A program made the position numbers and the translations under genes. From contig JAHDQN010000040.1 of assembly GCA_018433775.1 (NCBI GenBank), forward strand, positions 20,587 through 84,586: a DNA stretch of 64,000 nt, in the 5' to 3' direction. The notes beneath the pieces were generated by a model. That model was given only the letters and a program-made list of their open reading frames with translations. It searched no databases and was not told the DNA's origin. The DNA comes from Deltaproteobacteria bacterium. Its GTDB lineage: Bacteria; Desulfobacterota; Desulfomonilia; UBA1062. This document shows, piece after piece, positions 4,312 to 38,174 of the stretch. Positions within the stretch are counted from its first letter, which is position 1. Every line of letters begins with the position of its first letter.

Positions 4312-5946
4312 CTACCCCGCCCTGCTGTCGCGGTACGTGCAGCCCGCCTTGATGAAATCGCGGAACAGGGGATGCGGCTGCATGGGCTTCGACTTGAACT
4401 CGGGGTGAAACTGGCAGCCCACAAACCACGGATGATCCGGGAGCTCGACGATCTCCACGAGCCCGGTCTCGGGATTGCGGCCGCTGATGATCAGGCCCTT
4501 TTCCGAGAGCTGCCTCTCGTAGGCGTTGTTGAACTCATAGCGGTGCCGGTGGCGCTCGGAGATCTCGCTGCTCCGGTAGGCGGCCATGGCCTTCGTGCCC
4601 TGGCTCAAAGCGCAGCGGTACGCCCCGAGGCGCATGGTTCCGCCCTTTTTCGTGATGAGCCTCTGGTCCGGGAGATAGTCGATGACCGGGTCTTTCGTGT
4701 CCCGATCGAACTCGGTGCTGTTGGCTCCCCCGATGTTGCTTACATGCCTGGCAAACTCGACCACCGCGAGCTGCATGCCCAGGCAGATCCCGAAATAGGG
4801 GATGCCGCTGGTCCTGGCATACCGGGCGGCCCTGATCTTGCCTTCGATGCCCCGGTCTCCAAACCCGCCCGGCACCAGGATGCCGTGGATGTCTTCAAAA
4901 TGGCGGGAAATGTCGTCTTCGGAATTCAGGGCCTCGGCGTCCACATACACCCGGTTCACCCGGGTGCCGTTGAACAGCCCCGCGTGCTCCAGGGCCTCGT
5001 TCAGGCTCTTGTAGGAGTCGGTGAGCTTCACATACTTGCCCACCACCGCGATGTTGACCACTGCGGTCCGGCTGTCGAAGGTCTCGATCAGCTTTTCCCA
5101 GCCCTGCATCCGGGGCTCGCGGGTCCACATGTTCAGATATTCGACGATCCTCTCGTCGAGCCCCTCGCGGTGAAACTCGACCGGCACCTGGTAGATGTTG
5201 CCCACGTCGATGGCATTGATGACCGCGTCCTTCTCCACGTTGCAGAAGAGCGCGATCTTTTCCTTGAGCTCGGTTGAGAGCCGCTTTTCTGAGCGGCACA
5301 GGAGGATCTGCGGCTGGATGCCGATCTCGCGCAGCTTCTGGACCGAGTGCTGGGTGGGCTTGGTCTTGAGCTCGCCCGCTGTGGGGATGTAAGGAACGAG
5401 GGTGAGGTGGATGTACAGGACGTTCGACCTGCCCATGTCGAAGCCGAACTGCCTGATCGCCTCCAAAAAGGGGAGCGACTCGATGTCGCCCACGGTCCCC
5501 CCGATCTCCACGATGGCGATGTCGTAGCCGCCCGCAGCCTCGACGATGCGGCTCTTGATCTCGTTGGTGATGTGGGGAATCACCTGGACGGTCTTGCCCA
5601 GGTACTCGCCGTTGCGCTCCTTCTGGATCACCGAGTCGTAGATCTGCCCGGTGGTGAAATTGTTTTTTGCGGACAGGGGCGAAGAGGTGAAGCGCTCGTA
5701 ATGCCCCAGGTCGAGGTCGGTCTCGGCCCCGTCGTCGGTCACGAAGACCTCACCGTGCTGAAACGGGCTCATGGTCCCGGGGTCGACGTTGATATAGGGG
5801 TCGAGCTTGATGTTGGTCACGGTCAGCCCCCGCGCCTCCATAATGGCGCCGATGGACGCGGCTGCGAGGCCCTTGCCGAGGGAGGAAAGCACGCCTCCGG
5901 TGATGAAGATGTACTTGGTTGATTTCTTATGCGACATGATATGCAC
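4312..5946 (-). CDS. pyrG: CTP synthase
   Basis: The full-length product has the synthetase N-domain and a class-I glutamine amidotransferase C-domain (GICLGMQ). Confidence 0.95.
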
Positions 5947-6089
5947 CTACCGTAGAGATCTGTGGGCCGTCAAGCCACGGACGCCCCGGGTTAACGCTCC
6001 AAGCCTGCACATAAATTCCATAACGACTCTCCCCAAAACTTCGTGCCCGTAATCGCAATCATGCAGTCAAAAAAAACTCTTGAAAACTG

Positions 6090-6122
6090 CTTGATATTTC
6101 GCATGCGCACTTACGGCAACAG
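6090..6122 (-). promoter_or_regulatory. Conserved promoter-like motif upstream of pyrG (copy 1 of 2). On the minus strand it reads TTGCCG-N17-TATCAA with a GTGCGCATGCGAAA spacer.
   Basis: Over about 35 bp it is nearly identical to 25588-25625. Confidence 0.4.
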
Positions 6123-37300: not shown

Positions 37301-37394
37301 GTAATCGGAAGAGGATTCATCCCTTCACAGGGGAGGTAAAAACAGGGTATAGAGTGCGGGCGGTTTCTGCCGCCATACCAGGGGAGAAGGTGAC

Positions 37395-38174
37395 ATGCTG
37401 AGCAAGAGGATCATCGTATGCCTCGATGTGAGGGACGGGAAGACCACCAAGGGGGTCAGGTTCGAGGGCAACGTGGATATCGGCGACCCGGTGACCATGG
37501 CCAGGGAATACTACGAGCAGGGCGTGGACGAGCTCGTCTTCTACGACATCACGGCGTCGCACGAGAGGCGGGACATCATGATCGACGTGGTCGATCGCGT
37601 GGCCCGCGAGATCTTCATCCCCTTCTCCGTGGGCGGCGGCATCAGGAGCGTCGACGATATGTATCGGGCCCTTGACGCTGGGGCCGAGAAGATCAGCGTG
37701 AACTCGGCCGCGGTGCGCAGCCCGGACATCATCTCCCAGGGTGCCTGCCACTTCGGAAGCCAGTGCATCGTGCTCGGGATGGACGCCAGAAAGGTGCCGG
37801 CCTCACCCGCCATACCCTCGGGCTATGAGGTGGCGATCAACGGCGGCAGGACCTTCACGGGCATGGACGCCCTGCAGTGGGCCAGGAAGGCCCAGGACCT
37901 GGGTGCCGGAGAGATCTGCCTGAACTCCATCGACGCCGACGGCACCAACGACGGCTACGAGCTCGACCTCACCGGCATGATCTCGCGCAGCGTGGGCATT
38001 CCGGTCATCGCCTCGGGCGGGGCAGGCAGGCCGGAACATCTGCGCGACGTCTTCCTCCAGGCCGATGCCGATGCCGCGCTCATCGCCTCCATGGTCCACT
38101 TCGGCCGCTACACCATCCCGGGTATCAAGGCCTTTCTTAAAAACGCCCACATTCCGGTGCGCGACGTGGTCTGA
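37395..38174 (+). CDS. hisF: Imidazole glycerol phosphate synthase cyclase subunit HisF-like protein, with no other his genes adjacent
   Basis: The match is full-length to the HisF (beta/alpha)8 barrel. Confidence 0.8.

Follow-up and report, generated by a model that had tools for sequence, protein, structure and literature searches.

We analysed a 64,000-nt stretch (hereafter the window) of contig JAHDQN010000040.1, positions 20,587 to 84,586, from a Deltaproteobacteria bacterium of the Desulfomonilia, in which nitrogen genes are packed between positions 4312 and 38174. This region is probably a two-layer, vertically inherited neighbourhood of Desulfomonilia-type Desulfobacterota, made of a nitrogen regulon gathered around its regulator and of a conserved run of genes that spend amide nitrogen. 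In the first layer as we propose it, a sigma-54 activator gene and the gene of a PPDK_N protein stand at the centre, with amtB-glnK-glnD(-hisF) on one side and a split glutamate synthase (GOGAT) plus glnA on the other. The proposed second layer consists of carA, the gene of a 1243-aa GlmS-like protein (bigGlmS), glmM and its partners, carB and pyrG, all co-directional downstream of glnA and without activator site or sigma-54 promoter of their own. Promoters and palindromic sites strongly indicate a common nitrogen regulator for the amtB-glnK-glnD and GOGAT-glnA units. The wider amidotransferase neighbourhood is a genuine conserved synteny.

A sequence-only reading had taken the whole region for one regulated nitrogen-assimilation locus. 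This view is supported for the amtB-glnK-glnD and GOGAT-glnA units, which have conserved sigma-54 promoters, share a palindrome and enclose the activator gene. It is not supported for the run from carA to pyrG, which has neither promoter nor palindrome and is set off from glnA by 314 nt of spacer with a terminator-like hairpin, nor for pdxST, which has its own divergent regulator gene pdxR and appears to be a recent insertion. All the genes named in that reading (pyrG, carB/carA, the GlmS-like gene, glnA, split GOGAT, pdxS/pdxT, hisF, amtB-glnK-glnD and the activator) were recovered by profile scans, together with some that it did not mention: a nagB-like gene, glmM, a GlmU-C-terminal-like gene, pdxR and the PPDK_N gene. 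Its sigma-54 promoter, TGGCACCCCCCTTGCT before amtB, is present as well, and a second one, which had gone unmentioned, lies before GOGAT.

The proposed regulated core

Gene identities come from NCBIfam and Pfam profile scans, made after the 177 open reading frames (ORFs) of the window had been filtered by their pattern of third-position GC (GC3). From about 4 kb onward the GC content of the window is about 61%, and the true frames are those with high third-position GC. The elements of the core are the following:

18808-20175, minus strand: glnA, type I glutamine synthetase (TIGR00653, 521 bits; cutoff 429)
20188-22701 (ORF limits), minus strand: GOGAT subunit with GXGXG domain, GltD-like NAD(P)H/FAD oxidoreductase and C-terminal ferredoxin (Pfam GXGXG, Fer4_20, Pyr_redox_2, Fer4_7)
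22571-24412 (ORF limits), minus strand: GOGAT subunit with two [4Fe-4S] clusters and the FMN domain (Pfam Glu_synthase, 201 bits; Fer4)
24169-25299, minus strand: 376-aa subunit of GOGAT, class-II amidotransferase-like, that begins with GTG(Met)-Cys-Arg-Leu-Phe; ribosome-binding site and GTG read in the sequence
25353-25338, minus strand: TGGCACGGATTTCGCT, the sigma-54 promoter (-24/-12) that serves GOGAT-glnA, one mismatch, 38 nt before the GTG-Cys start
25520-25529, strandless: ACAATTTTGT, a palindrome resembling an activator site, on the upstream side of the GOGAT promoter
28708-30228, minus strand: NifA-like sigma-54 enhancer-binding protein of GAF-AAA+(GAFTGA)-HTH_8 architecture (Pfam GAF, Sigma54_activat, HTH_8)
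30335-32923, minus strand: PPDK_N protein, 862 aa, with a KaiC/RecA-like N-terminal domain and an ATP-grasp domain of PEP-synthase/rifampin-phosphotransferase type
33009-33018, strandless: ACAATATTGT (within TGAACAATATTGTACC), a palindrome resembling an activator site, in the intergenic region from which PPDK_N and amtB diverge
33087-33102, plus strand: sigma-54 promoter of amtB-glnK-glnD, TGGCACCCCCCTTGCT, exact consensus match, 48 nt before the amtB ATG
33150-34354, plus strand: amtB, ammonium transporter (TIGR00836, 481 bits, above cutoff); ATG after AAAGGAGA
34451-34789, plus strand: glnK/PII (NF008111, 171 bits; NF007946, 152 bits; curated cutoffs of 202 and 181 not reached)
34817-37300, plus strand: glnD, PII uridylyltransferase/uridylyl-removing enzyme (TIGR01693, 571 bits; cutoff 519)
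37395-38174, plus strand: hisF, imidazole glycerol phosphate synthase cyclase subunit (TIGR00735, 342 bits; cutoff 295)

The two promoters were found by scanning with the consensus TGGCACG-N4-TTGCW, membership being judged by TGGCAC-N5-TTGC with GG and GC 10 nt apart. At a score of 11/12 there are just two sites in the 64 kb, one before amtB and one before GOGAT, each in the correct orientation. Both are conserved. Among the 13 relatives with an upstream region, 12 keep the GG-N10-GC of the GOGAT promoter 49 to 57 nt upstream of the start codon, within flanks that have diverged; L050 has no such site, and in L002 the start of the gene is off the locus (L-numbers denote loci of relatives). The amtB promoter is kept in L081, L083, L040, L050 and L017, and in L048 it is placed before glnD. 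The palindrome, with its core ACAAnnTTGT about 80-170 nt upstream of each sigma-54 unit, has exactly two matches to ACAATATTGT at no more than one mismatch in 64 kb, where 0.33 would be expected, and both fall at the sigma-54 promoter regions. Most relatives have it in the corresponding spacers, too. No locus, the window included, has a sigma-54 promoter or the palindrome before carA, glnA, bigGlmS, carB or pyrG. Matches from simple sigma-70 and terminator scans came near the shuffled expectation for promoters, and these scans were excluded as evidence. Another candidate site, a 39-nt element shared on the same strand by 6094-6132 and 25596-25634 (core GTGCGCATGCGAAATAT; 17-39 nt), was rejected as a regulatory site as it is conserved in no relative; lying upstream of pyrG and of GOGAT, it is probably a local repeat.

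PF01645, PF01493 and a Cys-start amidotransferase subunit are encoded in adjacent genes, as in the split archaeal-type glutamate synthase. The likeness of this last subunit to class-II amidotransferases is weak (Pfam GATase_6, E=0.017; PDB 3mdn, E=0.34), and its Met1-Cys2 is invariant in 12 orthologues. The FMN subunit is 544 aa long in the gene calls of relatives (L087-L089). On the other side, Ammonium_transp, P-II and GlnD are encoded together, which makes an AmtB-GlnK-GlnD nitrogen-sensing module. The amtB orthologues of relatives are called at 401 aa, the GlnK match covers its full 112 aa and is joined by Pfam P-II matches to the orthologues in L081, L083 and L087-L089, and glnD probably starts at 34829, giving the 823 aa called in relatives. 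A solitary hisF, without hisH or further his genes, stands directly 3' of glnD in the window and also in L081 and L087, there with a gap of only 3 nt.

PF00158 (247 bits), PF02954 and a GAFTGA loop seen in the translation identify the regulator as an enhancer-binding protein. Its score against the NifA model TIGR01817, 518.7 bits, is slightly under the cutoff of 528.85. The NifA-type site TGT-N10-ACA is absent from the 13 orthologous upstream regions, and there are no nif genes among the annotated genes of the window. On these three grounds, we rejected an identification as NifA. The PPDK_N gene lies upstream of the activator gene, co-directional with it and divergent from amtB. Its family keeps about 60% identity across phyla (Desulfobacterota, Planctomycetota, Omnitrophota), some members having an N-terminal GAF domain, and its gene adjoins those of glutamate dehydrogenase and an NrpR-like protein in a 4.8-Mb genome, and of GOGAT and glutamate dehydrogenase in an Omnitrophota metagenome-assembled genome (MAG) (L092, L093). 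It looks like an uncharacterised nitrogen-linked family.

We propose that at low nitrogen status the activator would bind the palindromes and open the sigma-54 promoters, the status being sensed through its GAF domain and/or through GlnK, whose state GlnD would set. The outcome would be more ammonium uptake, more PII and GlnD, and more glutamine synthetase-GOGAT.

Comparison with known regulatory systems

The closest parallel is the DVU1949 regulon of Desulfovibrio vulgaris Hildenborough, a computational reconstruction (Kazakov et al. 2015, PMC4641369). Its predicted sites, TTACA-N4-TGTAA, such as TGAACAACATTGTCAA before glnA DVU3392 (PMC4641369, Additional file 4), serve amtB/PII DVU1231-1233, glnA DVU3392 and the three-gene split GOGAT DVU1823-1821, and DVU1949 is co-transcribed with an upstream hypothetical gene, DVU1952 (PMC4641369). 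Both regulators are single-component sigma-54 activators with GAFTGA and an upstream partner gene, here that of PPDK_N. The target set is the same, with palindromes upstream of the sigma-54 promoters of amtB and of split GOGAT-glnA, and TGAACAATATTGTACC of the window has the same core as TGAACAACATTGTCAA and is nearly identical to it. The 42-residue DNA-binding segments of the two activators are only loosely similar. While the targets are scattered over the chromosome in D. vulgaris, here they flank the regulator, and the amtB unit includes glnD and hisF. Judged by these sites and targets, the regulated core is a compact, clustered form of the predicted DVU1949-type sigma-54 nitrogen regulon.

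In the enterobacterial NtrBC system (glnALG, glnK-amtB, glnD), glnA and amtB-glnK are expressed from sigma-54 promoters that have activator sites further upstream, and GlnD/PII sense glutamine. The window shares with it the sigma-54 promoters with upstream sites at nitrogen genes and the presence of GlnD/PII. However, the activator has a GAF sensor domain and no receiver domain, no NtrB kinase gene is present, TGCACC-N5-GGTGCA is lacking, GOGAT is under the same predicted control and glnD lies in the amtB operon. The GAF-AAA+-HTH architecture, the TIGR01817 score and the upstream partner gene recall nifL-nifA, but the KaiC-like and ATP-grasp PPDK_N protein is unlike the PAS-histidine-kinase-like NifL.

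For the second layer, the enzymes CarA/CarB, PyrG and (in relatives) GuaA are those of carAB in E. coli and of pyrRBC-carAB and guaBA in Geobacter. In these model bacteria they are dispersed, each standing with the pyrimidine or purine genes of its own pathway, and Geobacter has its glnA apart from these pathway operons (PMC2700814). Here, in contrast, carA and carB are split by amino-sugar genes and joined to glnA/GOGAT and pyrG.

Conservation of the gene order

The sequence-only reading had allowed that relatives might show these genes dispersed and the arrangement be a misassembly. We ran the comparison across relatives and found the same order in independent assemblies, so that this test does not refute the observation. 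A scan of a genome collection with bigGlmS as query gave 380 relatives, from which 80 loci were kept, and gene order in these was read by tblastn of window proteins. All 80 are MAGs, labelled mostly Deltaproteobacteria, Desulfomonilia, Syntrophales and Desulfobacterales. The nearest bigGlmS loci among them are JAHDKO010000001 (92%), JAHDRW010000041 (90%) and MPOS01000047 of Phox-21 (84%). The order (activator or pdxR)-GOGAT x3-glnA-carA-bigGlmS-(glmU-like, glmM, nagB-like)-carB-pyrG recurs in at least 15 related MAG loci, with bigGlmS identities down to 55-58%; L040 and L048 lack glnA between GOGAT and carA. The loci with the GOGAT-to-pyrG order are:

L001, L002, L003, L005, L010, L011, L012, L014, L017, L022, L039, L040, L047, L048, L050

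The right half is conserved too. From 24 to 50 kb, the window is gene-for-gene identical in JAHDRW010000041 and one Logan contig (right half: L081, L083), and at GlnD identities of 43-56%, GOGAT, amtB-glnK-glnD and the activator gene, the latter not always accompanied by PPDK_N, stay together in L087, L088 and L089, often with hisF as well. In L088 (17755-19152) and L089 (14106-15503), purF and a 407-aa gene of the tRNA-synt_2 family lie a few kb from amtB-glnK-glnD, so that the neighbourhood gains a further amidotransferase gene there.

The concentration of genes is real and is kept across relatives. Within 24.3 kb lie four genuine amidotransferase genes (pyrG, carA, the GOGAT amidotransferase gene and pdxT). 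Assuming, by our own choice, 15-22 amidotransferase genes in a genome of 3-5 Mb, random placement gave at least four within 25 kb with P of about 0.0005-0.014, and the clustering is non-random. A stronger sign of this is a separate arrangement of like kind in Syntrophales-type loci, described below. The claim that essentially every major consumer or producer of the amide nitrogen is gathered here went too far: the scan of 39 GC3-supported ORFs (462-63541; a few short ORFs beyond 48 kb were left out) gave no purF, purL/Q, guaA, asnB, trpG/pabA, hisH, nadE or gatA. In addition, of the products counted as amide-nitrogen users, HisF is the cyclase subunit and not a glutaminase, and the GlmS-like protein probably does not hydrolyse glutamine.

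The amide-nitrogen-spending run and pdxR-pdxST

The second layer and the inserted genes are composed as follows:

4312-5937, minus strand: pyrG, glutamine-hydrolysing CTP synthase (NF003792, 849 bits; cutoff 308), ATG at 5937
6272-9481, minus strand: carB, carbamoyl-phosphate synthase large subunit (NF003671, 1704 bits)
9759-10751, minus strand: NagB-like gene, encoding a homologue of glucosamine-6-P deaminase/isomerase that has an insertion at its centre (TIGR00502, 131 bits over two stretches, cutoff not reached; Pfam Glucosamine_iso)
10795-12285 (ORF limits), minus strand: glmM, phosphoglucosamine mutase (TIGR01455, 586 bits; cutoff 448)
12213-13706 (ORF limits), minus strand: GlmU-C-terminal-like (left-handed beta-helix) gene (GlmU models matched at about 232-448 only, 52 bits)
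13499-17230, minus strand: bigGlmS, 1243 aa (Pfam SIS, GATase_6/7; PDB GlmS, E=9e-25 over residues 372-907)
17333-18493, minus strand: carA, carbamoyl-phosphate synthase small (glutaminase) subunit (TIGR01368, 474 bits; cutoff 307), ATG at 18493 after GGAGGAGGGGA
18609-18800, minus strand: glnA-carA spacer elements, a terminator-like hairpin directly after the glnA stop and then 39-nt units
25785-27041, minus strand: pdxR, MocR-type regulator with GntR HTH and aminotransferase fold (NF052282, 201 bits, cutoff of 320 not reached; Pfam GntR, Aminotran_1_2)
27098-27994, plus strand: pdxS, lyase subunit of pyridoxal 5'-phosphate synthase (NF003215, 495 bits)
27991-28602, plus strand: pdxT, glutaminase subunit of the same enzyme (TIGR03800, 176 bits)

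Four amino-sugar genes (nagB-like, glmM, GlmU-C-terminal-like and bigGlmS) part carB from carA. The start of glmM is probably near 12165, the profile beginning at ORF residue 45, and that of the GlmU-C-terminal-like gene near 13480, with orthologues of about 411-428 aa; no nucleotidyltransferase domain was detected in the product of the latter in the profile scan. The spacer between glnA and carA measures 314 nt, that before carB 277 nt and that before pyrG 334 nt. At 18609-18709, two tandem copies and one inverted copy of the 39-nt unit form a perfect 25-bp hairpin, reminiscent of repetitive extragenic palindromes (REP) or miniature inverted-repeat transposable elements, and the copy number of the unit differs in L001 and L005. 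Besides the window, only its closest relatives (L001, L005, L081 and L083) have the divergent pair pdxR and pdxST between the activator gene and GOGAT. Both pdxR-pdxST and the REP-like hairpins are seen as recent insertions.

As essential genes, those of the second layer would be transcribed mainly from their own promoters. Gaps across GOGAT-pyrG are just 20-180 nt in several relatives, so that some read-through from the nitrogen-controlled operon into the carA-pyrG run is possible in these.

BigGlmS, a large GlmS-like protein

With its two SIS domains, a class-II glutaminase fold, the motifs HTRWA, NG, SQSG(T)T.DT and VASTKAF and the C-tail-like QAKTVTV, bigGlmS resembles GlmS. From N- to C-terminus, it consists of an extension of 225 aa, a glutaminase domain of class II that is degenerate, the SIS domains and another extension of 330 aa; neither extension has a sequence relative in PDB, profile search included. 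At 1243 aa against about 610, with the extra C-terminal region, it differs from GlmS, and its scores are under the curated GlmS cutoffs (NF001484, 245 against 381; TIGR01135, 219 against 418) although SIS domains and motifs are present. A glutamine-hydrolysing GlmS has its catalytic Cys1 at the N-terminus; in bigGlmS the equivalent position is residue 226, behind the 225-aa extension, and of the 25 family members aligned, 19 have Ala or Thr there, Cys being confined to the other six, which belong to the clade nearest to the window. No variation is seen in the glutamine-pocket motifs HTRWAS, NGDIDN and TDT. Taken together, these residues suggest that bigGlmS is probably not glutamine-hydrolysing, with autoprocessing a possibility in the Cys-bearing clade.

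Desulfobacterota MAGs encode thousands of homologues of bigGlmS, annotated just as 'SIS domain-containing protein', and the most constant partners of the family are glmM and the GlmU-like gene. In Syntrophales-type loci (L028-L053), the arrangement is pdxT-(glmU-like)-bigGlmS-(glmM...)-guaA-pyrG, as at 8029-17078 of L032; guaA adjoins bigGlmS in at least 14 of these, and pdxT is upstream in 11. In Desulfobacterales, bigGlmS follows PBP, DegT-type aminotransferase and Fe-ADH-like genes, and in a further group it occurs with the gene of an amylase-like protein.

Competing explanations

Several points weigh against the two-layer reading. Operon limits are deduced from spacing and motifs only. The sigma-54-like count, two in the window where four would be expected at one mismatch, is not above chance, so that the case for the promoters rests on their position and conservation. 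The DNA-binding helix of the activator resembles DVU0569 at least as much as DVU1949, the short co-directional gaps of L010 and L012 would also suit one long transcript, and the recurrence of amidotransferase neighbours, namely guaA and pdxT among Syntrophales and purF at L088 and L089, hints at something beyond inertia. One long transcript is what a single superoperon would mean: the sigma-54 promoter of GOGAT would drive transcription through pyrG, and nitrogen status would govern production and consumption of the glutamine amide jointly. In favour of this, the 11 genes all run in one direction, L010, L012, L014 and L007 have estimated gaps of -37 to about 90 nt, and the order is kept over deep divergence. 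However, the hairpin and the long spacers after glnA and before carB and pyrG interrupt the run in the window, two loci do without glnA between GOGAT and carA, and carA, carB, pyrG and glmM are essential housekeeping genes for which a dependence gated by an activator would be surprising. We consider such a superoperon unlikely. An assembly artefact or a foreign island, that is a chimeric join in one MAG or a recent acquisition, could be suspected from the sharp GC break (38% against 61%) at about 3950, beside the region. This break is that of a cassette array, however, and its junction is reproduced in six other contigs. The GC content is even, at about 0.56-0.65, from 4 to 64 kb, Logan contigs of run SRR13787005 match the window at 100%, and no tRNA genes were found in the window, which leaves no tRNA-linked island. 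With the same order in many independent assemblies from different studies, misassembly or an island is refuted for 4-50 kb, and we give this explanation almost no credence.

The amidotransferase genes might also be held together by bigGlmS as a functional hub, through interaction of their products or through a common glutamine or ammonia signal; its degenerate glutaminase domain would then be a glutamine sensor, or the protein a recipient of ammonia from the class-I glutaminases CarA, PdxT or GuaA. What speaks for it is that carA flanks bigGlmS in the Desulfomonilia type, that pdxT upstream and guaA-pyrG downstream surround it in at least 11-14 Syntrophales-type loci, and that the glutamine pocket is kept where the nucleophile is mostly lost. 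Yet the company of bigGlmS in Desulfobacterales and in the amylase-associated group is of another kind, and its constancy with glmM and the GlmU-like gene is what an ordinary enzyme of the hexosamine pathway would show, so we regard a hub as quite improbable. A joint reading would have the co-localisation of amide genes selected and organised around both bigGlmS and the PPDK_N protein, the former being a glutamine-sensing or ammonia-dependent hexosamine synthase with neighbouring class-I glutaminases, and the latter a general nitrogen-assimilation factor that partners the activator as NifL does NifA. This, too, we hold with little confidence. The two-layer neighbourhood thus remains the explanation that we prefer.

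With the regulated core, a nitrogen regulon so far only predicted computationally in Desulfovibrio would be present in a compact copy linked to its regulator, and its cis-elements, two promoters and a palindrome, are clear and testable. The DVU1949-type regulon would then reach into uncultured Desulfomonilia and Syntrophales, among them relatives of Phox-21, a phosphite oxidiser. The gathering of amidotransferase genes is a good case in which to ask whether a common substrate, instead of a common pathway, can shape gene order, the members gathered varying by lineage (carA and GOGAT; pdxT and guaA; purF). The region also flags two large, conserved and unstudied protein families, bigGlmS and PPDK_N, as tied to nitrogen metabolism.

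An adjacent cassette array and other features of the window

The low-GC block at 1-3897 (minus strand, 38% GC) is an integron-like array of at least five cassettes that runs past the left end of the window. Its attC-like sites and the stretch that joins it to pyrG are:

448-507, 1207-1263, 2071-2127 and 2996-3052: attC-like sites of 57-60 nt, RYYYAAC...GTTRRRY, folding at -28 to -38 kcal/mol
3897-4311: non-coding stretch of 410 nt from the pyrG stop to the first cassette, 85-95% identical in L001, L003, L005, L084, L085 and L086

Each of the four sites follows one ORF, and none occurs elsewhere in the window. The block agrees with the attC array of an integron, in which imperfect hairpins of about 57-140 nt each follow one promoterless ORF. 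The cargo (a DEDDh exonuclease-BRCT protein, a DUF4145/PD-T7-4-like protein, a weakly TIR-like protein and unknowns) looks defence-related, and defence-like cargo has been reported for chromosomal integrons (bioRxiv 10.1101/2024.07.02.601686). No integron integrase gene (intI) was found in the window or at the junction, where pyrG is the neighbour in the window and in six other contigs; the array itself leaves the window, and an intI may lie further away.

The 410-nt stretch holds a promoter-like element, TGGTATATT, and a 38-nt palindrome. Homology stops exactly at ...GAGGAAGTTGTT / ...GAAGTTGTT, beyond which each contig has a different first cassette. Rfam gave no match to it, and RNAalifold found essentially no covariation, the sequences being too similar. 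More broadly, Rfam returned no riboswitch, leader or non-coding RNA in the whole window, and none at E<=1 in 1-4400. The stretch behaves as a putative attI-like or anchor site that has pyrG, and not intI, alongside. The arrangement fits a cluster of attC sites lacking integron-integrases (CALIN, as defined in PMC4889954) or an attI-like site that would be served in trans. An integrase-less cassette array would be anchored at a conserved site beside the nitrogen region.

At the other end of the region, between an MCP gene and tal-pgi, lie two paralogous genes of unassigned function (40767-42077 and 42177-43511, 436 and 444 aa) that share a 300-nt repeat at 75%; JAHDRW010000041 has just one 67-aa ORF in their place.

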